A DNA stretch of 64,000 nucleotides from an uncultured Gammaproteobacteria bacterium (lineage in GTDB: Bacteria; Patescibacteriota; Patescibacteriia; Magasanikbacterales; GWA2-37-8): contig CAZQUL010000001.1 in assembly GCA_964596525.1 (NCBI GenBank), positions 332,830 to 396,829 of the forward strand, in the 5' to 3' direction. Shown here piece after piece: positions 13,686-47,681 of this stretch. A model generated the notes under the pieces. That model searched no databases. It was not told the DNA's origin and saw nothing but the letters and a program-made list of their open reading frames with translations. The translations under genes were made by a program, and so were the position numbers. Position 1 is the stretch's first letter, and every line of letters starts with the position of its first letter.

Positions 13686-14126
13686 ATGAAGCGAAAGATG
13701 CTAGTAGGCGCCGTAGTTATGGGAGCTTGCTCGTTTATTGGCTGCGCGAGCACGCCGCCAGTTCAGGTGTTTTACCGGCCGCTTACCCGCTCCACGCTCA
13801 TGTCGCGTGTGGATGCTGAAATCCACAAGCGCGTGATGTTCGCGGTTAAGAAGGAATGCAGTTACGATCCGCGTCGCCTTGAGAATGCCCCGGATTCTGA
13901 TGAGCGGCCCCGTATGTGCATGACGCTCGATGAAAAATCATGCCGATTGGTTCTCTTGCGACAGATGCACCGGGTCGCTGATGTTATTAACATGGACATA
14001 ATGACTCAGTGCGCGTCAGCCCGGACTGATTGTCTGCATGGTGTATACGTGGCGGTTAGGGATTATCCCACGGAAAACTACACCTGCATCGCGATCGATT
14101 CCCGGGATTCGCTTCCTCGTGAGTAG
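13686..14126 (+). CDS. hypothetical lipoprotein
   Basis: AAGGAG Shine-Dalgarno. MKRKMLVGAVVMGACSFIGCAS lipoprotein signal. Cys-rich mature part. Confidence 0.6.
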   Translation: MKRKMLVGAVVMGACSFIGCASTPPVQVFYRPLTRSTLMSRVDAEIHKRVMFAVKKECSYDPRRLENAPDSDERPRMCMTLDEKSCRLVLLRQMHRVADVINMDIMTQCASARTDCLHGVYVAVRDYPTENYTCIAIDSRDSLPRE

Positions 14127-15249: not shown

Positions 15250-17484
15250 TTGCGTATGAAAACGCTCGTCATCGTCGAGTCGCCGACCAAGGCCAAAACT
15301 ATCAGCAAATTTTTGGGCCGAAATTTCATCGTCAAATCATCGTTCGGCCATGTGCGCGATTTGCCGAAAAGCAAACTCGGCGTTGATGTTGAAGATAATT
15401 TTGAGCCAACGTACGTAGTAAGCACGGATAAAAAAGAGGTGGTGAAAGAATTAACCGAGGCGGCCAAAAAATCCGACATAGTACTCTTTGCAACTGATGA
15501 GGACCGCGAAGGCGAAGCGATTTCGTTTCATTTGAGTGCGTTACTCGGTATTGAACCAACCGACGCGAAACGCGTGACGTTCCACGAAATTACCAAAGAC
15601 GCGATCGTGAAAGCCTTTGAGCACCCGCGCGCGCTCGATATTAAACTCGTTGATGCACAGCAGGCCCGTCGCGTGCTTGACCGGTTGGTGGGGTACGAAC
15701 TCTCGCCGTTTTTATGGCGCAAGGTGGCCAAAGGGCTTTCGGCCGGCCGGGTGCAATCGGTTGCGGTGCGCCTCGTTGTCGAACGCGAACGCGAAATCCG
15801 CGCCTTTATTCCGCAGGAATACTGGAGCATCGAAGGATTATTCTCGCCGAAGAGCAAAGAAGAATTTGCGGCCAAACTCACGTCGATCGCGGGTAAAAAA
15901 CTTGACAAGTTCGACATTAAAAACCAAACCGAAGCGGACACCATCGTCGCAGCGCTCAAAGGACAAACGTATTCTGTCACGAGCGTGGAACAAAAAAATA
16001 CGTCGCGCGCTCCGAACGCCCCATTCACTACGTCCAGTTTGCAACAAGAAGCCAATAACCAGCTCGGGTACTCGGCCAAACTCACCATGCGCATCGCGCA
16101 GAAACTCTATGAAGGCGTGGAGCTCGGGAGCGAAGGTCATATCGGTCTCATCACCTACATGAGAACCGACGCCGTGAACTTGTCGGATAATTTTTTGAAC
16201 GATGCTGCAGCCGTAGTGCTCGAAGACTTCGGTAAAGAATACGCCTTGCCCGAACCGCGCCGCTTTAAGAATAAAAGCAAGAACGCGCAAGAAGCGCACG
16301 AAGCGATTCGTCCGACGGATGCCAAGCGCACGCCGGCGCTCGTCAAACCGTTTTTGGCGCCGCAGGAATTCCGGTTGTACGAACTTATTTGGAAACGTGC
16401 GGTGGCGACCCAGATGGCCGATGCCAAACTCCTTAACCAGAGCGTGGATCTCATGAGTGCCAATAACTACGGATTCCGCGCCACAGGGCAAACTATCGTC
16501 TTTGACGGTTTCCTTAAACTCTTCCCGGAAAAAAGCAAAGAGAATTTGCTGCCGCCCCTCACTGAAGGTGAAGCGGTTACGTGCACGAAGCTTACGCCTG
16601 AACAGCACTTTACCGAACCGCCGGCCCGCTATAGCGACGCCACCCTTGTCAAAGCGCTCGAAGAATACGGTATTGGTCGCCCGTCCACCTATGCGCCCAC
16701 CATCGCCACCATCGAAGACCGCGGTTACGTAGTGCGTGATGAAAAAAAGCGCCTGGGCCCGACCGACATCGCCTACATCGTCAACGACGTGCTTGTCGAA
16801 CATTTTCCGCATGTCGTGGATTTTCAGTTCACCGCGAATATGGAACAAGAGCTCGACGATATTGCTGAAGGCACCAAAGAATGGCGGCCGGTCATCAAAG
16901 CATTCTATGTTCCCTTCCACGATAATTTAAAAAAGAAAGAAAAAGAGATTGATAAAAAAGAACTCACCGAAATCCCGACCGACGAAGTATGCGATAAGTG
17001 CGGCAAACCGATGGTTGCCAAAACCGGTCGCTTCGGACGATTTTTGGCCTGCACGGGTTACCCGGAATGCAAGAGCACCAAACCGCTCGACGCCGCGCTC
17101 GGCAAAACCACTCCTGAAATGGAACTTACGGATGTGGTCTGCGAAAAATGCGGATCGAAGATGCAGGTGAAGCACGGCCGCTTCGGACCGTTTCTTGGCT
17201 GCTCCAACTATCCTGATTGCAAGAACATCAAACCGATCGAAAAGAAAATCGGCGTGAAATGCCCGGTGTGTAAAGAGGGTGATCTTATTGAACGCAAAAC
17301 CAAACGCGGACGCTTTTTTTACGGCTGCAACCGCTACCCAAAATGTGAAGCAGCGTTTTGGGAAAAACCCAACGGTGAGAGTTGTCCGAAATGCAAATCG
17401 CCTTTAACGCAGAATGCGAAGGGTGTGGTGAAATGTAGTAATAAAGAATGTGATTATAAGAAAGAGGTTGAGAGTGAGAGTTAA
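15250..17484 (+). CDS. topA: DNA topoisomerase I with C-terminal zinc-ribbon repeats
   Basis: Toprim start MKTLVIVESPTKAKTI. Active-site region and topo IA core. Three to four C4 zinc ribbons (CDKCGKPM..CTGYPEC etc.) at the C-terminus. Start may be 15256. Confidence 0.95.
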   Translation: MRMKTLVIVESPTKAKTISKFLGRNFIVKSSFGHVRDLPKSKLGVDVEDNFEPTYVVSTDKKEVVKELTEAAKKSDIVLFATDEDREGEAISFHLSALLGIEPTDAKRVTFHEITKDAIVKAFEHPRALDIKLVDAQQARRVLDRLVGYELSPFLWRKVAKGLSAGRVQSVAVRLVVEREREIRAFIPQEYWSIEGLFSPKSKEEFAAKLTSIAGKKLDKFDIKNQTEADTIVAALKGQTYSVTSVEQKNTSRAPNAPFTTSSLQQEANNQLGYSAKLTMRIAQKLYEGVELGSEGHIGLITYMRTDAVNLSDNFLNDAAAVVLEDFGKEYALPEPRRFKNKSKNAQEAHEAIRPTDAKRTPALVKPFLAPQEFRLYELIWKRAVATQMADAKLLNQSVDLMSANNYGFRATGQTIVFDGFLKLFPEKSKENLLPPLTEGEAVTCTKLTPEQHFTEPPARYSDATLVKALEEYGIGRPSTYAPTIATIEDRGYVVRDEKKRLGPTDIAYIVNDVLVEHFPHVVDFQFTANMEQELDDIAEGTKEWRPVIKAFYVPFHDNLKKKEKEIDKKELTEIPTDEVCDKCGKPMVAKTGRFGRFLACTGYPECKSTKPLDAALGKTTPEMELTDVVCEKCGSKMQVKHGRFGPFLGCSNYPDCKNIKPIEKKIGVKCPVCKEGDLIERKTKRGRFFYGCNRYPKCEAAFWEKPNGESCPKCKSPLTQNAKGVVKCSNKECDYKKEVESES

Positions 17485-18235: not shown

Positions 18236-18793
18236 ATGAAGAGATTGATGTCCCTTATGATGTTGTCGGCCGGTTTGGCCGCGTGCACGGAAGCGAACCC
18301 TGTTTTCGGTGCCGACTGGACCGTTCGCTTGCAGGCGGACATGGGTGTAGGCGGCGAAGATTTGAAGCCGGTTTCCTGCCCGCCCATGCACGCTACCGGC
18401 TCGACGCCCGGCTTTCACCCGGATGCGGACCGTTGCAAGGATTCCTTCTGCTACCGCAGCGACAATTCGCCGGTTTCGTCGAAGTCGTGCGTGTGGGGGC
18501 TTGCGGATCCGGAGCATCCGATCGTGCTGGTGTATCAGGAATCCAATGAGAAGAAAGTGGGCAGCTGGCGCCTCATGCCGGGCAATGACATGCGCCTGAC
18601 GCAGTCGTCCAACACGTTCTACCAGTTCGGGGAGAACGTGACGGCCATCTATTCGCGTCTCGCCGAGAACGATGCGTACCTGCCCTGGTTCCGCGAGCGT
18701 ATCGACTTTGAGAAGCGGCAGGTCATTATGGAGTCTTGCCCGGGCACCAACGGCCTGTGCACTCCTTGGGCAAACGTGACCCCGCCGCAGTAA
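18236..18793 (+). CDS. hypothetical lipoprotein
   Basis: AGAGGAGG Shine-Dalgarno. Signal MKRLMSLMMLSAGLAAC. Terminator follows. Confidence 0.7.
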   Translation: MKRLMSLMMLSAGLAACTEANPVFGADWTVRLQADMGVGGEDLKPVSCPPMHATGSTPGFHPDADRCKDSFCYRSDNSPVSSKSCVWGLADPEHPIVLVYQESNEKKVGSWRLMPGNDMRLTQSSNTFYQFGENVTAIYSRLAENDAYLPWFRERIDFEKRQVIMESCPGTNGLCTPWANVTPPQ

Positions 18794-18819
18794 CAAGCCG
18801 TTTGAAGCGGTCCGATTCA

Positions 18820-18846
18820 GCCTGGTGTGAAAACGCCAGGCTTTTT
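18820..18846 (+). terminator. rho-independent terminator
   Basis: GCCTGGTG-tgaaaa-CGCCAGGC followed by TTTTT. Confidence 0.8.
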
Positions 18847-18955
18847 GAATAGAAAACGCTTCAATTTTCCTTAGCTAAGCCATTATTTTGTTTTATTGCA
18901 TATGTTAGCCAAGATTTAGGAGTCTTTTTGGGCTAATGTTAGCCCCGTTCTACCC

Positions 18956-18984
18956 TTGACAAGACCGTAAAAATATGGTATACT
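18956..18984 (+). promoter_or_regulatory. sigma70 promoter P1 (consensus -35, extended -10)
   Basis: TTGACA (18956-61), 17-nt spacer, TGgTATACT (18976-84). Confidence 0.65.
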
Positions 18985-18990
18985 ATGCTG

Positions 18991-19085
18991 TTGAGAATGA
19001 AGAACCGAAGCGAACCTTACAACAAACATCGGTATCCCATACTTCTTGAGCCGCCACCATACGAAACGGGCGGTTTAAAAAAGAG
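18991..19085 (+). ncRNA. candidate small RNA (P1 to intrinsic terminator)
   Basis: Predicted TSS about 18991. CCGCC-n13-GGCGG followed by TTTAAAAAA at about 19056-19085. No ORF with a Shine-Dalgarno in between. Confidence 0.25.
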
Positions 19086-19113
19086 TCCGCTAAGTATAGC
19101 GACCGAGATAATC

Positions 19114-19142
19114 TTGACAAGACTCAAAAAGTATGGTATACT
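19114..19142 (+). promoter_or_regulatory. sigma70 promoter P2 (near-identical copy of P1)
   Basis: CTTGACAAGAC...TGGTATACT with 17-nt spacer. Same core as P1. Confidence 0.6.
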
Positions 19143-19181
19143 GATTCGTTAAGCTAGAAACTGAGTTATCCCGAGATTAGC

Positions 19182-19210
19182 TTGACAAGTACACCAAAGT
19201 GTTCATTACA
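19182..19210 (+). promoter_or_regulatory. sigma70-like promoter P3 (weaker -10)
   Basis: CTTGACAAGT with TTGACA at 19182-87, 17-nt spacer, ATTACA. Followed by a long leader hairpin GGTTCGGTG...CACCGAACC and then the AAGGAG Shine-Dalgarno of the 19320 gene. Confidence 0.5.
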
Positions 19211-19319
19211 AGGTCGGTTCGGTGAAGGTGAAGAAGAAAAGCTTCTTACTCGCCTCCACCGAACCGAGATCGCGCTCTTATAAAGAGTGCGGTCATAACC
19301 AAGACCAAGGAGACCCTAG

Positions 19320-19649
19320 ATGATCAAGAACAAGAGCCTCGTCGCCACCCTCTTCGCCGCTGGCCTCTCGATCGCCCTCCAGTTCTCGCTCAAGACCAGC
19401 AACACGAATGGCGCGCCGAGCCTCACCTTCCAGACCGCCTCTGCCGAGAGCGAGCCCATGCCGGGCCCTGGCAACAAGCCCAAGGGTGCCGTGTGCAGCT
19501 CCTCCACGGAGTGCGCTGGAGTGTTGGTCTGCAAGGGCGGCGCTTGCGACGACCCGGAGGAGCCTTCGTACTGCAAGTACTCGGATGAGAGCTGCTTCCA
19601 CGACAACGAGTGCTGCAGCAGCGACTGCACGTCTGGTGTCTGCAAGTAG
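19320..19649 (+). CDS. small secreted cysteine-rich protein (109 aa, 10 Cys, knottin-like C-terminal domain)
   Basis: AAGGAG Shine-Dalgarno. Signal peptide LVATLFAAGLSIALQ. C-terminal CSSSTECAGVLVCKGGAC...CKYSDESCFHDNECCSSDCTSGVCK. Two hairpins follow at about 19665-19682 and 19697-19756. Confidence 0.7.
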   Translation: MIKNKSLVATLFAAGLSIALQFSLKTSNTNGAPSLTFQTASAESEPMPGPGNKPKGAVCSSSTECAGVLVCKGGACDDPEEPSYCKYSDESCFHDNECCSSDCTSGVCK

Positions 19650-19871
19650 CCTTCGTCCACCACGCCGGGTCTTCGGACCCGGCAGGAGTGAAGCTTCCAC
19701 GGCTCTCACTCTACTTCAGAACTCAAGAAATTGAGAATTGAAGTAGAGAGCCGTGGAACGCTCACAAGAAATCAGACGATGGAAAGAGATCTTTACGAAG
19801 ATCTCTCCACACTGACTGAGTTCTAGACATGCCTGGCACAAGCCGGGTTAACCAGAATCGAGGGAAAGCAC

Positions 19872-20141
19872 ATGATCATTAACAAGCTGCGCCTGCCGAC
19901 TTTCATCATCGCCATCGTCCTCTCGTTTTCTTCGGTAGCCTTCGCTGACGCGAGCGGCTCCGAGCAAGCGGAGGAAATGGGGAAGAAGGAAGTTGATGCG
20001 GCGCGCGATCAGGTGATCAAGGATCTGCAGGAGGGCGCCAAGAGCGGCGACTTCTCCAAGTACGCGAAGAGCTATAAGAAGCTCAAGGAAGAGCGCAAGA
20101 AGGCCGAAGAGGAAGAGAAGGAAAAAGAAGAGAAGAAGTAG
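19872..20141 (+). CDS. small secreted Lys/Glu-rich protein (89 aa)
   Basis: GAGGGAAAG Shine-Dalgarno. Signal peptide FIIAIVLSFSSVAFA. Charged KEERKKAEEEEKEKEEKK tail. Confidence 0.6.
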   Translation: MIINKLRLPTFIIAIVLSFSSVAFADASGSEQAEEMGKKEVDAARDQVIKDLQEGAKSGDFSKYAKSYKKLKEERKKAEEEEKEKEEKK

Positions 20142-20193
20142 TCCTCACCGCGCTCATCTGCATCCATCAACCGCACGACTCGAAGGAGTTCCT

Positions 20194-20484
20194 ATGAACA
20201 AGAACCTGGGCTCTGGCAACGTCTACCCGACCACCCCGACCACCGCCGACAAGAAGGGCATCCTCGCGATGCTCCTCGCGATCCTCGTGGTCGCGGTCCT
20301 CGGCATCCCCGAGCGCAAGCCGGCGGCGGCCAAGCCGATCGCGAAGCCCGCGGTAACGCAGATCGCGACGAGCGTCGCACGTGGAACGCCCTGCAAGACG
20401 GATCGTGACTGCGATCCGGAGGACATCTGCTACTATTCGCCGAAGAGCGGGATGAGCTACTGCGAGGAAGCGGTCACCGACTAG
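20194..20484 (+). CDS. small membrane-anchored/secreted protein with C-terminal Cys module (96 aa)
   Basis: AAGGAG Shine-Dalgarno. Hydrophobic segment ILAMLLAILVVAVLGIP. C-terminal GTPCKTDRDCDPEDICYYSPKSGMSYCEE. Confidence 0.6.
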   Translation: MNKNLGSGNVYPTTPTTADKKGILAMLLAILVVAVLGIPERKPAAAKPIAKPAVTQIATSVARGTPCKTDRDCDPEDICYYSPKSGMSYCEEAVTD

Positions 20485-20687
20485 GCACAACGCCTTGAAC
20501 CAGGAGAAGCCCCCCGGCTCTCCTCTGCTCAACTCTTTGAACCATCGAAGATTTGAGCAGAGAGCCAGAACTTCTCCTCAAACACTCTACGGAAACGTAG
20601 GGTGTTTTGTTTATCCTGTCATAACCTTGACAACAGTGTGCTGGTATGACAGAGTTTTTTCACTCGTTTACAACCTAGGAGGATGTC

Positions 20688-21128
20688 GTGAAATGCCCCC
20701 AAGTGATTCTGTTGCTTTTGCTGTGTGCTGCTCCAGTAGCAGCTGAGGAAGCTGAAGTTGCCTGCCCTGTCCAGCAGGGCATGCAGCCGCAACATGGTGA
20801 TCTATGTCGCATTACATATAACGAAATAAGCAGGCTGAGACGAGAGATAGAAGCGCTCTCGCGCAATAAAATTCCTTCCTTGAAGGAGGCTTGCAGAGAG
20901 ACCGTACGCGTGAATGATCCGCTTATCGCGCAAGTACTTTTGGACGCGGAGCGTCTTTATCGCCTGAAACAGTACAAGTACGCTGTCGCTGCCGAAGGCC
21001 GAGCACACGCGCTGCAGGAAGAGATTGCAACTGTTTGCGCATTGCTCAGTGGCGCAGAACATGTGCTAGTGTATTATCGCCAACAAAAAGAGAATCTGGA
21101 GCGCATGCGCGAGAGTTGCAACTGCTAG
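20688..21128 (+). CDS. secreted helical protein, 4 Cys (146 aa)
   Basis: GGAGG then GTG start. Signal VILLLLLCAAPVAAEE. Terminator hairpin GCCCGAC-gtat-GTCGGGC follows. Confidence 0.65.
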   Translation: MKCPQVILLLLLCAAPVAAEEAEVACPVQQGMQPQHGDLCRITYNEISRLRREIEALSRNKIPSLKEACRETVRVNDPLIAQVLLDAERLYRLKQYKYAVAAEGRAHALQEEIATVCALLSGAEHVLVYYRQQKENLERMRESCNC

Positions 21129-25632: not shown

Positions 25633-25706
25633 GGGCCAATAGCTCAGCTGGCTAGAGCGCTTCCATGGCATGGAAGAGGTCCGGGGTTCAAATCCCCGTT
25701 GGTCCA
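25633..25706 (+). tRNA. tRNA-Ala (anticodon GGC)
   Basis: Manual fold with the Ala identity pair G3:U70. Anticodon loop ATGGCAT. T-arm CGGGG-TTCAAAT-CCCCG. Confidence 0.9.
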
Positions 25707-25719
25707 CAAAATCAAAAAA

Positions 25720-25739
25720 CAGCCGCGCGGCTGTTTTTT
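25720..25739 (+). terminator. rho-independent terminator after tRNA-Ala
   Basis: CAGCCGC/GCGGCTG palindrome followed by TTTTTTG. Confidence 0.75.
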
Positions 25740-25886
25740 GATTTCCATAAGAAAATTCGGAAAGTGTGGTTTTATCTTGACCATTTCCGCGGTCTCTGTT
25801 ACATTTCGCTGTTCCGTGAGGTGCGCTGCAACTGGCTACGGATGTTCGTTGACCTGCTCCTTGAAGGGCAGAAGGAGAGAGAAAAA

Positions 25887-27620
25887 ATGAAGAAATTGAC
25901 CTGGAAGGACTATATTCTCTTTGTTGTCGCTGCGTGTATGGCCGGAGCGTTGTATTACCACGAGGCAGTGGTGAAGCACGATCCGTATGCCAACTTCGTC
26001 GAAGTGGCGCAGGATATCCGCGACCACAAGGTGAAAGAGATTGTTGTGCAGAGTGAAAAGCTGGAGGTGAAGTTCACAACTGGTGCGAAACGCCTGTACC
26101 CCAAGGAAGGTGCTGAGAGTTTTGAGCATCTGGCGGAGCGTTACAAGATTTCGCCGGAGATGCTCGCTGGCATCAAGATCGTGAACGAATCTTACAAAGG
26201 TTTTTTCGATCTGCTGACGTTCCTTATTACGCTCGCCATCCCAATTGGGGCATTCTTCTTCTTGAGAAGGACAGGGGTCAGAGGGATGAGGATTGAGCAG
26301 GTGATGAAATGCAACGTCACCTTTGCCGATGTGGCCGGACTTGCGCCGGCTAAGGCCGAGCTCACCGACATTGCGGCGTGCCTCGAGCGTAAGGACGATT
26401 GCGCCCGCTACGATATTCGGCTGCCGCGCGGTATCTTGTTTACCGGCGAGCCGGGTACGGGCAAGACCCTTCTGGCCCGAGCACTCGCCGGCGAGACGAA
26501 AGCGGCGTTTTTCACCGTCAGTGGGTCGCAGTTCGTGGATACATTCGTCGGTTCGGGTGCGCGCAATGTGCGCAACCTGTTTGATGCGGCGCGCGCTGCG
26601 GTGGTCAAGACCAAGCACCCGGCGATCATCTTCATCGATGAGATCGACGCTGTGGGTGTGAAAAGGACAGATCATCCGCTAGGAAATGACCAGCGCGACC
26701 AGACGCTCAACGAGCTCCTCGTCGCGATGGATGGTCTTGTCTCCGACAACGCCATCGTCGTCATCGCGGCCACCAACCGGCCCGACATGCTCGACGGGGC
26801 GCTCCTGCGTCCGGGCCGCTTCGATCGTAAGATCCATCTGGAACTACCGGACCGTGCGGCTCGCCGTGCCATCCTCGAGATCCACGTGCGCGAGAAGCCG
26901 CTCGCGTCGAGCGTCGCGCTCGATACCATCGCCGCTCGTACCGCCGGATTTTCGGGCGCCCAGCTCGAGAGTCTGGTGAACGAAGCGGCCATCCTCATGA
27001 TCCGTGCCGGAGAGATCCACATCACGGGCCGCATCATGGATGAAGCGATGGACAAGGTGCTCGTGGGTGTGGGCAACGCGCGGGTCGTAACGGGAGAAGA
27101 GCGGGAACGCGTCGCTTATCACGAAGCCGGACATGCGATCGCGGCGCATTTCTTGCCGCACTGCAAAGGCCTGCGCCGCGTTTCCATCGTGCCACGCGGC
27201 ATGACCGGCGGTTTCACCATGGTGACACCGGAGCATGAGAACTCGCTGCGTACCCGTGCCGAGCTTGAGGAGCAGCTCGTCATGATCATGGCTGGCTACG
27301 CTGCCGAGGTGAGTAAGTATGGCGAGAGCGGCCTTTCTACGGGCTGCACTAACGACCTCGAGCGTGCGGATTCCCTGGTGCGGTACATGGTGACGAGGTG
27401 GGGAATGGTGCCGGAGGTGGGCTTCTTCACCCCGGCGCAGGGCGTGTCCGAGGAGCGGCGAGAGCGGGTGGACGAAGCGGTGAAAGACCTGCTCACGCAG
27501 GCGCGAAATCGCGCCGCTGAACTGCTTGCTACACATAGCGCGCTTTGGATGCGTCTCGCCCATGAGCTTATGAACAAGGAGACGCTCAACGAGGCAGAAC
27601 TCACCGTGCTCCTTGGTTAG
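25887..27620 (+). CDS. ftsH: ATP-dependent zinc metalloprotease FtsH (paralogue 1)
   Basis: AAGGAG Shine-Dalgarno. Two TM helices flanking a periplasmic domain. Walker A GEPGTGKT, Walker [38 protein letters not shown] zinc site. Confidence 0.9.
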   Translation: MKKLTWKDYILFVVAACMAGALYYHEAVVKHDPYANFVEVAQDIRDHKVKEIVVQSEKLEVKFTTGAKRLYPKEGAESFEHLAERYKISPEMLAGIKIVNESYKGFFDLLTFLITLAIPIGAFFFLRRTGVRGMRIEQVMKCNVTFADVAGLAPAKAELTDIAACLERKDDCARYDIRLPRGILFTGEPGTGKTLLARALAGETKAAFFTVSGSQFVDTFVGSGARNVRNLFDAARAAVVKTKHPAIIFIDEIDAVGVKRTDHPLGNDQRDQTLNELLVAMDGLVSDNAIVVIAATNRPDMLDGALLRPGRFDRKIHLELPDRAARRAILEIHVREKPLASSVALDTIAARTAGFSGAQLESLVNEAAILMIRAGEIHITGRIMDEAMDKVLVGVGNARVVTGEERERVAYHEAGHAIAAHFLPHCKGLRRVSIVPRGMTGGFTMVTPEHENSLRTRAELEEQLVMIMAGYAAEVSKYGESGLSTGCTNDLERADSLVRYMVTRWGMVPEVGFFTPAQGVSEERRERVDEAVKDLLTQARNRAAELLATHSALWMRLAHELMNKETLNEAELTVLLG

Positions 27621-27639
27621 TACTGTGTGATTCAACCAA

Positions 27640-27668
27640 CGCTTCGCTGTATATCAGCGGAGCGTTTT
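27640..27668 (+). terminator. rho-independent terminator (copy a)
   Basis: CGCTTCGCTG-tatat-CAGCGGAGCG followed by TTTTT. A near-identical sequence follows the second ftsH at 29681-29710. Confidence 0.7.
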
Positions 27669-27787
27669 TAATTGCGTTCGATCCGACCATTACGCGTTTC
27701 TTTAAAGCTTGACTTTTTTGCCTTCTTAAGGTTTAGTATCCTGTTCCCTCCGCGGTGGAGGGCGGTTCGTTAACAAAGGAGGCTGTC

Positions 27788-29656
27788 GTGAAGGTGCCCA
27801 AGTTCAAGTTCCGGATGGATTATCTGATTCTGCTCTTGTTTGTGATCTCGCTCGGCCGTAGCACGTATGTCGAGATGTGGAAGTTACCACATAACTCATA
27901 TAACAATTTCAGCGAGCTGGCGGATGACATCCGCGCTGGAAAGGTCCTCAAGATAACGGTAGAGCCGAACCGCCTGACGGTCCAGAAGTCCGGCGGCGTA
28001 ACGAGGTTCCTCAGCAAGGATAACGATACGTTTGAAACGCTCTCCATGCGCTACAAGCTCGAGACATCGCATCTTGATCGGGTTACGATTGCTCACAAGG
28101 GCGAACGTGGCTGCGCGGCGTCGACGAGCGACGTGTTGTTTTCGCCGGGAGCGCTGCTCGCTCTCTACTTCTTATTCGGCCGTCGGTCTCCGTCGTCCGA
28201 GGAGAATAAGGAAGAGAAAGACGATGCTGGTGACGATAAGGACAAGAAAGAGAAGCCGCGCGGGTTGGAAGGGTTCTTCCAGCGCGTCAAGGAAGCTCTC
28301 AATCCCAAAGGAATCGAGATCGAAGAGGCGACCGAGTGTGCGACGACCTTCGCCGATGTGGCCGGTCTCGAGCCGGCCAAGGAGGAGCTCCGCGACATCA
28401 TCGTCTATATCAAGAATCCGGAGTCGTTCGAGCGCCACAACATCCGGCTGCCGCGTGGCATTCTCTTCACCGGCGATCCGGGGACGGGCAAGACGCTCCT
28501 CGCCCGTGCACTCGCCGGCGAGCTCAAGGCATCGTTTTTTACCACCAGCGGCTCGCAGTTCGTAGACGTGTTCGGCGGATTGGGAGCGCGCAACGTGCGT
28601 GATCTGTTCGCCCGGGCGCGGCAGGCCGTGGAACAGAAGAAACATCCGGCTGTTATCTTCATCGACGAGATCGATGCGGTCGGCGGCGCGCGTAGCGACA
28701 ATCCGTCGTTCCATCCGGAACGGGATCAGACGCTCAACCAGCTGCTCGTCGAGATGGATGGACTCAAGAAACAGGCGGGCATCATCGTGATCGCGGCCAC
28801 CAACCGGCCGGATATGCTCGACCCGGCACTCTTGCGACCTGGCCGTTTCGATCGCAAGATTCATCTCGAGCTCCCTGACCGGGCGGCGCGGTTCGATATC
28901 CTAACGATCCACGCCCGACAGAAGCCGCTCGCCCCAGACGTTTCGCTCCTCGACATCGCCGCTCGTACGGCTGGCGTGTCCGGCGCGCAGCTCGAGAGCC
29001 TGATGAACGAAGCCGGAATCCTCATGCTGCGCCAAAACGAGACGGTGATCACGAACGAGATGATCGCCGAAGCTACGGACAAGGTGCTCATGGGCGTCGG
29101 CAACGGTCGGATCCTCACGCCCGAAGAGCGCGAGCGTACGGCCTGCCACGAAGCCGGTCACACCCTCGTCGGGTATGCACTTGATCACTGCGATCCGGTG
29201 CGCCGCGTTTCCATCGTAGCGCGCGGCGAGGCCGGCGGCTTCACCATGGTCGCGCCCGAGCATGATGATCCGTCGCATACCAAGGAGCAGCTCGAGGATA
29301 TCCTGGCGATGACCATGGCCGGCTATGCCGCCGAGGTCAGTAAGTATGGCGAGAGCGGTCTCTCGACCGGCGCCGCAAGCGATCTCGAGCGGGCCGAGAA
29401 GCTGGCGTGGTACATGGTGACCACCTGGGGAATGAAGCGCGAGGTCAGTTTTTTCACCGATATCGAGCGCGCTTCCGAAGCGCGCATTCAGATGATCGAG
29501 AAGACGGTGAACGAACTACTCACCACTGCCTACGGTCGGGCGTTCGAGCTCCTCAAGAAGCACGAGCTCAAGTGGAAGAACGTGGCCGATGCTCTCATTG
29601 AGAAGGAAGTGCTGGATGAGGATGATCTCGAGCGGATGCTCGATCAGCTTGATTAG
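27788..29656 (+). CDS. ftsH: ATP-dependent zinc metalloprotease FtsH (paralogue 2) with Lys/Asp/Glu-rich linker
   Basis: AGGAGG then GTG 27788; the ATG at 27755 is an alternative start. Walker [15 protein letters not shown]. Insertion [24 protein letters not shown] after TM2. Confidence 0.9.
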
Positions 29657-29750: not shown

Positions 29751-30608
29751 TCAGCGTGCGCGATGCAGCGCGTTCTGCAGGCGCCGATAAGTCTCATCCG
29801 AATCGGCTGCGATGATATCGGTATAGCCGTCCCGCTCGAACGTGGGATTGCTCCACGCGCCGCCGCCGAGGCTGGCCATCCAGGCGACCGCGCCCGTATC
29901 GATGAAATGTCGGCGGTTCTGCACAAGCCCGCACAGCTCGCCTTGGAGGAGCTGCGTGCTGTGGTGGCGGAACTGCGCAGGGTCGGTAATGTCTTGGTTA
30001 TCAATCACTTCAAGCCCGACGTATTCCAGCGCGTACCGTTCGGCGCTTGTAATTTTGGCGACGAGCACCAGATTGTTGCTCGGCACGATACGGTGCGTCT
30101 GCCAGATGTGGCCGCCCGGCATGGCGCCTGTCGTGGTGCAGTAGAGCGCCTGTTCGTTTTCGCCGATCCCAATGTAGCACACGTCGCGACAGGGAACGTA
30201 GACGATGGCGCCGAGATAGCGGTTGTCTTGGCGGATGGTGAGGATGACATCGAAGAGCGGTAGACCGTTCTGGAAATAGTACGTTCCGTTCACTGGGTCA
30301 AGCGTAACCTGGTACGGCTGCGATCCGCGCTTGTCGAAGATGGCGGAAATATCGTCATCCTCTTCGCCGTAAAACGAGCAATCGGAAAACTTCTGAAAAA
30401 TCATCGCGCCGAGAAAATTCTGCACGAGCCGGTCGGCGCGGGTCACGGCGTTCGCAAACGCGGTGCCGCCTTTGCCGGGGATGGCGAGGTCGGTGTGTTC
30501 GCAAAGAATCGGTTGGAGCTTTTGGGCGAGTTTGCCGGCACGCAGGATATCAGGGAGAAGAAGTTCGAGGGCGCGGCGGACTCCGATCGAGGCAATGCGG
30601 CTGTGCAT
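29751..30608 (-). CDS. inositol monophosphatase / CysQ-family phosphatase
   Basis: Motifs DPVNGT and a WD.AAG-like sequence. AAGGAAG Shine-Dalgarno before ATG 30608. The longer ORF to 30695 has no Shine-Dalgarno. Confidence 0.7.
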   Translation of the reverse strand: MHSRIASIGVRRALELLLPDILRAGKLAQKLQPILCEHTDLAIPGKGGTAFANAVTRADRLVQNFLGAMIFQKFSDCSFYGEEDDDISAIFDKRGSQPYQVTLDPVNGTYYFQNGLPLFDVILTIRQDNRYLGAIVYVPCRDVCYIGIGENEQALYCTTTGAMPGGHIWQTHRIVPSNNLVLVAKITSAERYALEYVGLEVIDNQDITDPAQFRHHSTQLLQGELCGLVQNRRHFIDTGAVAWMASLGGGAWSNPTFERDGYTDIIAADSDETYRRLQNALHRAR

Positions 30609-30808
30609 GGACTCTTCCTTTTTCAGGGTGCACCCGAACGAGCTGGTGTCGGATGTGTGATTAGTATAACGCAGGTTGAGAAAAAGGCTAGGCACATATG
30701 TATCCGCACGTCTTGCTTTTTTATTAGTTTTATAGTTAAGTAGCGCGTTCCGGCAGTGCCGGACACTGTTCCTGACAATTCAGGTCAAACTATAGGGGAG
30801 GAAGAGCC

Positions 30809-42275: not shown

Positions 42276-42304
42276 TTGACAATCAATACATAATGCCGTA
42301 TACC
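42276..42304 (+). promoter_or_regulatory. sigma70-like promoter of the collagen-like lipoprotein gene
   Basis: TTGACA, 17-nt spacer, TATACC. Confidence 0.55.
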
Positions 42305-42374
42305 AAGGGGGTCTCGCGTGCCTGCGAGATTGCCTTCACAACTGTACGAGCAGAACGTACCAAAGGAGTTCCCC

Positions 42375-43421
42375 ATGAAGCGTTTCCTGTCCAGCATCTC
42401 CGCCGCGCTCCTCCTGTGCTCCACCGTCTCCCTCTTCGGCTGCGACGAGGGCGAGGTCGTCGGCTCCGCCGGTCCGGCGGGCCAGGCTGGCCCCAAGGGC
42501 GACAAGGGAGACACCGGCGCCATGGGTGCCCCGGGCGCCGATGGCATGATGGGCACCATGGGCCCGGCCGGCACCAACGGCACCGGCGACGTCGTCGTCA
42601 CCGGGACCCTCGCGCCGACCCAGGGCTGGTCCTTCATGACCTTCCGCATGGGCGGCGCCTTCATGAACCGCGTCGTGTTCGCGGATGACTACGCCTACCC
42701 GCCCGAGAGCTTCGCTCTGCCCGGCCTGCCCGTCGCCTCCAGCCTGCGCCTCGAGACCGGCCCGTCGCTCGTCGACCCGGGCAACGCCGCGCAGCTCCTG
42801 GGTGGCAAGGCCTACGCCGGCTCCGCAGGCCAGAACTACACCCGCGTCGGCGACATCATGAGCGTCAAGTACGTCACCCGCGTCGACAGCGCCACGAGTG
42901 TCGCCGCGACCGGCCCCGGCTACCTCAACCTCTTCGTCTCGCCGGGCACCTCGGATCTCAAGACCGCCGCGGCGCGCAAGGCCTGGTTCGAGGCGGAGCC
43001 CACGGAGTACGATCTGATCGTCTTCGATCCGGCCTACTTCCCCAAGCCCGGCTACGCCCCCCAGAACGGCCGCTGGCAGGCCTGGATGCTCGACGACAAC
43101 GCGCCCGTGCGCTGCCGCCGGAGCAAGCTCGTCATCGACGGGACCGGCACGCGCTGCATCAAGGACGCGGAGGTGAAGTGGGGCGTGCTCAAGCAGTACA
43201 ACCCCGATGCCTTCCTCGTGCCGCCCCACTGCTCCGAGTTCGCGGCCGTCGCCCCGGCCATGTGCCCGGCCACCCCGCCGCAGCCCGGCCTGGTCTACGT
43301 CATCGGCTCGTCCACTGAGTCCGTGACCGCGCCCAACTGGAGCAACTTCAAGGTGAACCTCGGCGCCGTCGAGATCACCTACGAAGGGGACTACAAGCGG
43401 CGCTACCTGTTCGGCAAGTAG
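42375..43421 (+). CDS. lipoprotein with collagen-like Gly-X-Y triple-helix repeat
   Basis: AAAGGAG Shine-Dalgarno. Signal LLLCSTVSLFGC. 13 consecutive G-X-Y triplets GPAGQAGPKGDKGDTGAMGAPGADGMMGTMGPAGTNGTG. C-terminal roughly 250-aa globular domain. Confidence 0.75.
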   Translation: MKRFLSSISAALLLCSTVSLFGCDEGEVVGSAGPAGQAGPKGDKGDTGAMGAPGADGMMGTMGPAGTNGTGDVVVTGTLAPTQGWSFMTFRMGGAFMNRVVFADDYAYPPESFALPGLPVASSLRLETGPSLVDPGNAAQLLGGKAYAGSAGQNYTRVGDIMSVKYVTRVDSATSVAATGPGYLNLFVSPGTSDLKTAAARKAWFEAEPTEYDLIVFDPAYFPKPGYAPQNGRWQAWMLDDNAPVRCRRSKLVIDGTGTRCIKDAEVKWGVLKQYNPDAFLVPPHCSEFAAVAPAMCPATPPQPGLVYVIGSSTESVTAPNWSNFKVNLGAVEITYEGDYKRRYLFGK

Positions 43422-46274: not shown

Positions 46275-46316
46275 ATACGCCCTATCGTTGACAGGGCGTA
46301 TGATTTTTGATATATT
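46275..46316 (+). promoter_or_regulatory. terminator hairpin with an embedded sigma70 promoter
   Basis: ATACGCCCT-atcgTTGACA-AGGGCGTAT followed by GATTTTT, then TATATT 17 nt after the TTGACA. Confidence 0.5.
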
Positions 46317-46451: not shown

Positions 46452-47681
46452 ATGAGCACGAATTTCGAGAATCTGGTCGTTCCGGAGAAGGACGTGAAGG
46501 CTTTCGGCGCTTCTCTGTGCCGACTCTTGAGGCTCGATCTCAAGGCTGCTGAAGCAGCAACCGCCCACATCTTCCCTGAAGGGACTGAGTTCCAGCACGT
46601 CATCGGTCAGATGGCCGATGAGCTACCCCGGGCTCTGAAGGAAGCCAAGGTGGAGGTGAAGAATCGGCACTTCCTGAAGGATGCCATTCCTGTCCTCAAT
46701 CTCTTCCGTCCCGGCATGGCCATCTGCAAGGAGTGCGGCTGCCTACCGATTTGGCGTGTGAGCGGGGCCCTGGTGGTGCGGTCCGTCGGCGAGACCTGTC
46801 CGATTCCGGAGTGCGGCCGCGTCCTTACCGCGCGCGCGACCGTGGCGGTGACCTTCAACTGGTACAAGCTCGAGATGGTGCCGGACACGGATGACAACCA
46901 TATCCTCACCATCGGCAGCAGCAACATCCCGGTGACCCGCGCCGCGGCCATCATGAATCGTCTGAACGATCGCGGTGGCCTTCATCATCAGGTGCAAGAG
47001 GTGATGGAGCACTTCGGGCTCGTCGTCCCGGACGATCTGCCGTACTTCGTCGGTGCGGTGTTCAGCACTCAGCGGCGCACGTACGAAGAGAAGCCGCTTC
47101 GTGCCGTCCTGAGCCTGAGCGCCAAGCTCTTCGATACGGATCTTACCACCCTCAACGAGCTCGAGGCGTGGGCGCTGGCGGCAGTCAACTTTAAGAAGCA
47201 GGCCACCCGCCGGGTCGAAGACATGCAGCTGCCGCCGTCTCCCCAGGTGCCGCCCGCTCCGGTATCCTTACCCAAGGGAAAAAGAGCGTTTCGTTCCTTG
47301 GTGCTAGGCTTGCTCGGGACTGCGCTGCAGCTGAATGACGACTTCGATGCTTTTGTTACCAAGTATTTTCCCCAGACGCATCAACTTCTTCCTGTTGATT
47401 TTCTGGAGAAAAGGAATTTTTTGGTTGACAAACACGGTCTGCGCGAGGTCTACCGCCTTATGCTCCAAAGCGTGAAAATCGAGGAGTGGCATCTTGTCAT
47501 GGTGCTGCGGTGGAACTTCAAGGACTACGAACCGCTGCATGCCTTTGTGAATCGTTACTTCCCGGCAGCACTGCCTCGCGTCAAGGGTCAATACGGCATT
47601 GATGCGCAAAGCGACGCTCTCGTGCAATATGCGGGCGTCCCGGCCATGCTCAAGGCGCTCGAGGCCGAGTTCTCGGCCTAG
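46452..47681 (+). CDS. hypothetical cytoplasmic protein (409 aa) with CxxC...CxxxC zinc-ribbon-like motif
   Basis: GAGGTGA Shine-Dalgarno. No signal peptide. CKECGC...CPIPECG. Roughly 140-nt structured leader upstream. Terminator GCAGCCC-tcc-GGGCTGC downstream. Confidence 0.6.
   Translation: MSTNFENLVVPEKDVKAFGASLCRLLRLDLKAAEAATAHIFPEGTEFQHVIGQMADELPRALKEAKVEVKNRHFLKDAIPVLNLFRPGMAICKECGCLPIWRVSGALVVRSVGETCPIPECGRVLTARATVAVTFNWYKLEMVPDTDDNHILTIGSSNIPVTRAAAIMNRLNDRGGLHHQVQEVMEHFGLVVPDDLPYFVGAVFSTQRRTYEEKPLRAVLSLSAKLFDTDLTTLNELEAWALAAVNFKKQATRRVEDMQLPPSPQVPPAPVSLPKGKRAFRSLVLGLLGTALQLNDDFDAFVTKYFPQTHQLLPVDFLEKRNFLVDKHGLREVYRLMLQSVKIEEWHLVMVLRWNFKDYEPLHAFVNRYFPAALPRVKGQYGIDAQSDALVQYAGVPAMLKALEAEFSA

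Follow-up and report, generated by a model that had tools for sequence, protein, structure and literature searches.

The window, the whole 64 kb stretch of DNA that was analysed, holds the locus in a chromosomal setting. Its neighbours are topA (the topoisomerase I gene, 15250–17484), a glyoxalase gene and a methyltransferase gene, and the surrounding housekeeping genes encode GatB, EngA, LytR, two FtsH paralogues, ClpB, SpoIID and a MoxR/VWA pair. This topA shares 68–69% identity with its counterparts in Magasanikiibacteriota-like MAGs, and Patescibacteria supply most of the remaining close matches, which places the window in a CPR bacterium; the genomes closest by this measure (topA 68–69%) do not have the promoter region. 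A 1.34 Mb contig is on record as encoding one protein of the locus. One other contig carries the locus, with 100% identity and in the same orientation. Both flanking proteins are orphans, and this sole other copy, being identical, gives no sign of conservation. Pfam scans of the genes from ~15.2 to 33 kb and of selected other window genes detected no recombinase or phage families. A phage origin was also rejected because a PHROG scan of nine local ORFs did not support it, giving two weak matches (E ~0.002), both to the protein encoded at 19872. The two FtsH paralogues (AAA + M41 peptidase) are adjacent and lie directly after tRNA-Ala, at 25665–29656; the first FtsH ORF as listed overlaps the tRNA, and its true start is probably downstream, at an ATG near 25888.

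The promoter region and the genes on either side of it are laid out as follows, with promoters and start sites given as predicted.

18236–18793: upstream orphan gene (185 aa)
18819–18847, + strand: intrinsic terminator of the 185-aa gene (10-pair stem, 4-nt loop, TTTTTG), at the start of the promoter region
18931–18944: perfect 14-bp palindrome GGCTAATGTTAGCC (GCTA-N4-TAGC), 12 nt upstream of the promoter 1 −35
18955–18984, + strand: promoter 1 (−35 at 18956–18961; 17-nt spacer with an A5 tract; TG at 18976–18977; −10 at 18979–18984)
~18990–18991, + strand: predicted start of promoter 1
19028–19050, + strand: inverted partial copy of promoter 2, forming the left stem arm
19046–19078, + strand: G+C-rich hairpin (10 pairs, 13-nt loop) followed by TTT (to 19081) and then A6; not a canonical terminator
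19088–19101: palindrome CGCTAAGTATAGCG (GCTA-N4-TAGC), 12 nt upstream of the promoter 2 −35
19113–19142, + strand: promoter 2 (−35 at 19114–19119; 17-nt spacer; TGgTATACT, with the −10 at 19137–19142)
19123–19145, + strand: right stem arm, overlapping the promoter 2 spacer and −10
~19148–19149, + strand: predicted start of promoter 2
19171–19210, + strand: copy 3 of the module (CCGAGATTAGCTTGACAAG intact, −10 degenerate; predicted start, if used, ~19216–19217)
19215–19266, + strand: long leader hairpin (~21 pairs), beginning at the predicted start of copy 3
19268–19294, + strand: second leader hairpin (12 pairs), not followed by a T-run
19307–19312, + strand: Shine-Dalgarno AAGGAG, 7 nt before the ATG
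19320–19649, + strand: Cys-rich gene (109 aa, secreted orphan)
19872–20141 and 20194–20484: further genes after the Cys-rich gene, then a terminator-like site at 20580–20607

The three genes between 19320 and 20484 probably form one unit for small secreted proteins that ends at the terminator-like site. Their products are orphans with signal-peptide-like N-termini, and their third-position G+C, inferred from opposite-strand frames, is ~0.8, compared with ~0.6 for the genome. Counting the 185-aa gene, four consecutive orphan genes (18236–20484) have values of ~0.78–0.83 against ~0.6 for most genes. Raised third-position G+C is also seen at 42376–43421 (~0.93), at 46452–47681, in the two ftsH paralogues and at 29751–30695; the bias could reflect expression-linked codon usage or foreign origin. 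No relative of the 185-aa protein was found among 5.8 billion proteins, and the Cys-rich protein gave low-complexity or repeat-level matches only among 1.84 billion representatives, with no Pfam or PDB match. Of its 109 residues, 10 are cysteines, grouped into two modules, CSSSTECAGVLVCKGGAC and CKYSDESCFHDNECCSSDCTSGVC. The latter has a knottin-like C-C-CC-C-C spacing, and the former recurs as a tandem repeat, CxSSxECxGxxxCxxGxC, in the small secreted proteins P0005, P0007 and P0008. Between promoters 1 and 2, an ORF at 18985–19152 was discarded as coding sequence: its third-position G+C of 0.46 falls far short of that of real genes and ranks near the bottom of the ORF table, and it is not preceded by a Shine-Dalgarno sequence. 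No PHROG match to it was detected. Given its composition and missing Shine-Dalgarno sequence, we treated the interval as non-coding.

Direct reading of 18400–19900 located CTTGACAAG on the + strand at 18955–18963, 19113–19121 and 19181–19189. Exact copies number four in the 64 kb window against 0.35 expected, a count of at least four being reached in 0 of 100 shuffles; the fourth, at 15901, is within topA. The full promoter pattern with up to two mismatches likewise matches four times, compared with 0.24 expected. The −35 hexamer TTGACA is perfect (6/6) in all three local copies. The original prediction described a duplicated TTGACA, 17-nt spacer and TGnTATACT at 18956 and 19114, and these elements are present, the positions being those of the TTGACA hexamers, one base inside CTTGACAAG. 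TG-preceded TTGACA-N17-TATACT extends over 18956–18984 and 19114–19142 and scores 11/12 plus TG. With a 17-nt spacer, TATACT and a TG one base before the −10, promoters 1 and 2 have the attributes of sigma70-type promoters and, together with a site at 46288, are the top matches of this type in our own scan of the window.

Copy 3 was also described accurately, with TTGACA at 19182–19187, a 17-nt spacer and ATTACA at 19205–19210, and all copies are indeed on the + strand, upstream of AAGGAG and the ATG of the Cys-rich gene at 19320. To speak of three near-consensus promoters is correct for copies 1 and 2 but overstates copy 3. Whether its −10 is read as ATTACA at 17 nt or as CATTAC at 16 nt, TG is absent, as are the A at position 2 (−11A) and the T at position 6 (−7T). 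The −10 boxes of this genome are loose, yet the A at position 2 is nearly always present. With loose −10 boxes and well-kept −35 hexamers being usual in this genome, some promoter activity, weak at best, may remain in copy 3.

The copies resemble one another beyond their promoter elements. The 30-mers of promoters 1 and 2 are 26/30 identical (87%), with 8/12 identity in the spacer. Copies 2 and 3 have CCGAGATnAnCTTGACAAG in common (17/19) upstream of and through the −35, after which copy 3 diverges. A three-way alignment covers ~75 nt with 27 invariant columns, and successive copies, all on the + strand, are 158 nt and then 68 nt apart. The alignment fits the earlier suggestion of a duplicated promoter cassette, in the sense of local duplication. 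A tandem-repeat finder called no repeat in the region, the copies having diverged too far and being offset by indels. Spacer identity of 8/12 is attained by 3–6% of unrelated promoters with the same fixed motif, so promoters 1 and 2 may have converged on a lineage consensus, and part of their likeness may be lineage promoter style, not common descent.

GCTA-N4-TAGC palindromes occur three times in the window, two of them at equal offset from promoters 1 and 2. GGCTAATGTTAGCC is a possible regulator site or may merely be part of the duplicated module. On the − strand, CGCTAAGTATAGCG contributes to a promoter look-alike (TATACT and TTGTCA) running from 19120 to 19093. The shorter TTAGC/GCTAA element is found seven times in the 310 nt of 18871–19181, compared with ~0.3 expected from its window-wide frequency. 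Three copies upstream of promoter 1 are phased at exactly 34 nt (18871, 18905 and 18939), and the palindromes CTTAGCTAAG and GGCTAATGTTAGCC fall among the copies; the series may represent arrayed regulator sites or else a set of more decayed repeats. Downstream, 20626–20660 holds CTTGACAAc followed by TGGTATGAC, ahead of a gene at 20688. Here TGGTATGAC is only 12 nt from the −35, and with a 17-nt spacer the −10 would read CAGAGT; this site may be another diverged relative of the promoter module.

Considered as a specific cassette, the motif proved to be generic. CTTGACAAG(A)-N-(A)TGGTATACT was found in more than 120 stretches of the metagenome collection and more than 120 of the viral collection, among the matches listed, and the flanks and spacers of these matches are unrelated. 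Neither a stricter consensus nor the upstream CCGAGAT extension had any other occurrence among the retrieved loci, and BLAST of 18800–19900 against 300 of them recovered the 30-nt promoter only. A promoter-bearing MITE or other dispersed repeat was rejected, there being no second copy in the 64 kb and the 300 loci sharing only the generic 30-nt promoter. No target-site duplication was seen in the sequence at 19028 or 19145. Stacking of strong promoters, which had been called unusual, is not rare either. Among 686 strong sites in the retrieved phage and metagenome loci there were 32 distinct co-oriented pairs 40–250 nt apart, many of them in phage early regions; rrn P1–P2 and T7 A1–A3 are textbook cases of stacked strong promoters. 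The very high or differentially regulated expression that the original prediction drew from the stacking is plausible.

Similar promoters precede topA (15201), tRNA-Ala (25569), tRNA-Arg (13406), a collagen-like lipoprotein gene (42276) and an orphan gene (46288) in the window. Perfect or near-perfect −35 hexamers with a loose TAnnnT −10 lie before topA, two tRNAs, ftsH and other genes of this genome, and in the closest relatives TTGACAAAATGGCTAAAAAATGGTATAMT stands before a gene. Because the motif precedes topA, tRNA and other window genes, this organism appears to use it, and by its sequence and placement it would be the ordinary housekeeping promoter at its strongest. The genes behind the promoters at 42276 and 46288 are also rich in third-position G+C. 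At 42276–43421, TTGACA-17-TATACC is followed by a 5' hairpin, a Shine-Dalgarno sequence and the lipoprotein gene, with its extreme third-position G+C; the Pfam collagen-repeat match of this lipoprotein is under threshold (26.1 bits against a cut-off of 27.2). Judged from sequence, the pairing of a strong promoter with G+C-rich third positions, joined by a hairpin at 42276, fits a highly expressed class of envelope or secreted proteins.

The RNA that would be made from these promoters is predicted to be highly structured. The leader fold of 19205–19320 has a z-score of −7.3 (leader structure z-scores, −7.3 and −8.4), and a repeat search places the 25-nt arms of its long hairpin in 19214–19267 with 84% complementarity. 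Downstream of the leader hairpins, AAGGAG is left unpaired in the predicted RNA. Another hairpin, at 19149–19186, is predicted to start within a few nucleotides of the promoter 2 start. Upstream, a 23-nt repeat pairs 19028–19050 with 19123–19145 at 87% complementarity. By our own count, the reverse complement of 19028–19050 agrees with promoter 2 at 20/23 positions and with promoter 1 at 13/23; the promoter 2 portion that it matches consists of the spacer, the −10 and the first three transcribed bases. The resulting long-range stem would be confined to RNA that reads through from promoter 1. The fold of 19010–19150 has a z-score of −5.7, and 18991–19100 alone is not unusual (−1.45). Between 18985 and 19320, a terminator scan reported no + strand terminator-like site and did not list the hairpin at 19046–19078; this hairpin and its TTT (19046–19081), between promoters 1 and 2, could still halt some transcripts. 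With Rfam 15, tRNAs were the only families to reach gathering score in the window, and for 18780–19900 the best matches were miRNA-hairpin noise far under threshold, with no family matched even at E = 10. As a whole, the region looks pieced together from direct and inverted local duplications of a single promoter module.

Almost every long inverted repeat in the 64 kb window falls within 19000–20610, between the small orphan genes. They include 19214–19267, 19688–19765 (with a nested hairpin at 19709–19748), 19767–19824 and 20523–20562. T-runs are absent from them and most have 4-nt loops, and the fold of 19640–19880 has a z-score of −8.5. These repeats could be processing or stability elements. 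An integron cassette array was rejected, as RYYYAAC/GTTRRRY core sites were absent by eye in the hairpins at 19214–19267, 19688–19765 and 19767–19824, and an integrase was absent from the Pfam results for the region. A 33-codon upstream ORF with a GTG start (19222–19323) sits within the leader hairpins, and its TGA stop shares bases with the Cys-rich gene's ATG (ATGA); the chance occurrence of such an ORF was estimated at ~15%.

Our favoured explanation, which we hold to be somewhat on the likely side of even, is that the duplicated tandem promoters drive high expression of the small secreted-protein unit, additively or redundantly. Under this explanation, local duplication would have left a single module present three times, head to tail, in 18931–19210. 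The first two copies would be intact promoters for the housekeeping (sigma70-type) factor, and copy 3 would have kept its −35 half while its −10 decayed. Polymerase would start at ~18990, at ~19148 and perhaps weakly at ~19216, and would read into 19320–20484 without meeting a terminator. Stacking would yield high expression, either by summation or by mutual backup, and the leader hairpins would probably stabilise the mRNA. The arrangement is consistent with a tandem array feeding one unit, the hairpin and TTT at 19046–19081 being a caveat.

A different use for the first promoter can also be proposed. Promoter 1 might make its own non-coding RNA of ~90–155 nt, from ~18990 to the hairpin at 19046–19078 or to promoter 2, leaving promoter 2, with or without copy 3, as the sole promoter to serve the Cys-rich gene. 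The non-coding character of the interval and the G+C-rich stem followed by TTT are in keeping with this proposal, as is an unrelated metagenome contig, L117, in which the same motif with the same nine bases after the −10 (GATTCGTTA) precedes a ~100-nt unit with a clean terminator. However, the window hairpin has a 13-nt loop and only three T before A6, was not called by the terminator scan and contrasts with the real terminators of this genome, which carry 5–6 T. The fold of 18991–19100 is ordinary, and not even a marginal Rfam match was obtained. The likeness to L117 was spotted post hoc and is not significant by local alignment; the idea that L117 and the promoter 2 unit are homologous was dropped since the score is within background. 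We therefore regard a separate small RNA as unlikely, if worth weighing. For its own part, L117 (13600–14367 of Ga0209211_10004871) has two tandem promoters, the ~100-nt non-coding unit, for which no Rfam match was found, and a terminator at 13809–13842, followed by a long hairpin and then a G+C-rich gene; its second promoter is the one that resembles window promoter 2.

The duplications themselves could also have left little function behind. A single site, most likely promoter 2, may be in use, with the other copies being silent leftovers of recent duplications in fast-changing intergenic DNA. This would suit a patchwork of short direct and inverted repeats, the visible decay of copy 3, and a locus whose genes are lineage-specific orphans. 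It accords poorly with promoters 1 and 2, which both retain the consensus positions including TG, since a silent copy should have drifted as copy 3 did; moreover, near-consensus sequence is expected to bind polymerase regardless of its history. We consider silent relics rather improbable. The inverted repeat 19028–19050/19123–19145 could instead be a switch. At the DNA level it might act by inversion or through a cruciform that separates the promoter 2 −35 from its −10, and at the RNA level through a 23-pair stem formed in promoter 1 transcripts only, for instance with RNase III trimming them to approximately the promoter 2 5' end. The arms are complementary at 20 of 23 positions and specific to promoter 2, not promoter 1. 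The strongly negative z-score of 19010–19150 and the concentration of the window's long inverted repeats at 19.0–20.6 kb point the same way, and the enclosed − strand promoter look-alike would face the gene after inversion. Yet the enclosed segment of 72 nt is short for recombinase-mediated inversion, recombinase families are absent from the scanned genes, and the only independent assembly has the same orientation; on these grounds, and with the repeat overlapping the −10, an inverton was rejected. A switch at either level seems to us very improbable. A related conjecture, to which we give a small chance, is that promoter 1 RNA holds a ~120-nt structured domain (19028–19145) whose closing stem is an inverted copy of the promoter 2 −10 region. 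Such a domain might exert lineage-specific control, as an RNase III site or as an RNA/DNA switch, by coupling the two promoters and setting how strongly an episymbiotic CPR bacterium expresses its small disulfide-rich secreted proteins.

Additive or redundant tandem promoters, the explanation we prefer, have well-known parallels. In E. coli rrnB, P1 and P2 are strong sigma70 promoters of like orientation, separated by little more than 100 bp of terminator-free DNA, and serve one highly expressed unit; there, the upstream promoter can occlude the downstream one. The window locus similarly has co-oriented, predicted strong promoters, with no terminator called between them, that would feed one unit. 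It differs in serving small secreted orphan proteins instead of stable RNA, its promoters are near-identical copies and not differently regulated sequences, and the locus yielded no UP element, Fis sites or discriminator. Phage early arrays (T7 A1/A2/A3 and the viral loci L064, L213 and L236) also resemble it, with several co-oriented near-consensus TTGACA-17-TAtAmT promoters, often with TG, 60–220 nt apart, and CTTGACAAG...TGGTATACT is frequent in viral contigs among the matches listed. Unlike these arrays, the window locus is chromosomal, and its phage-family matches are limited to the two weak ones of the 19872 protein.

mRNAs with ompA-type leaders have stabilising stem-loops at their 5' ends. 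The strong hairpins predicted near the starts of promoter 2 (19149–19186) and copy 3 (19215–19266) may be comparable, and downstream of the strong promoter at 42276 the layout is the same. The window hairpins differ from such leaders in being much longer, and they are known here from predicted folds. The E. coli kps PR1 region also has three tandem promoters in a single regulatory region, placed before a cluster of surface-related genes, and there the activity of an upstream promoter affects a downstream one (PMC5738388). In contrast to the window copies, the kps promoters are not sequence copies of one another and depend on IHF and supercoiling coupling (PMC5738388).

Overall, the arrangement is real, statistically non-random and ordinary in kind, a fresh example from a phylum that has received little study. 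Sigma70 promoters in tandem or duplicated form have long been known, and as regulatory architecture this is no new kind. Should the promoters be active, the locus would be among the most strongly transcribed in this small Patescibacteria genome, and the secreted Cys-rich orphan proteins would be abundant surface or host-interaction factors. Active promoters of this type would also offer a compact, E. coli-like strong promoter for the genetics of CPR bacteria.
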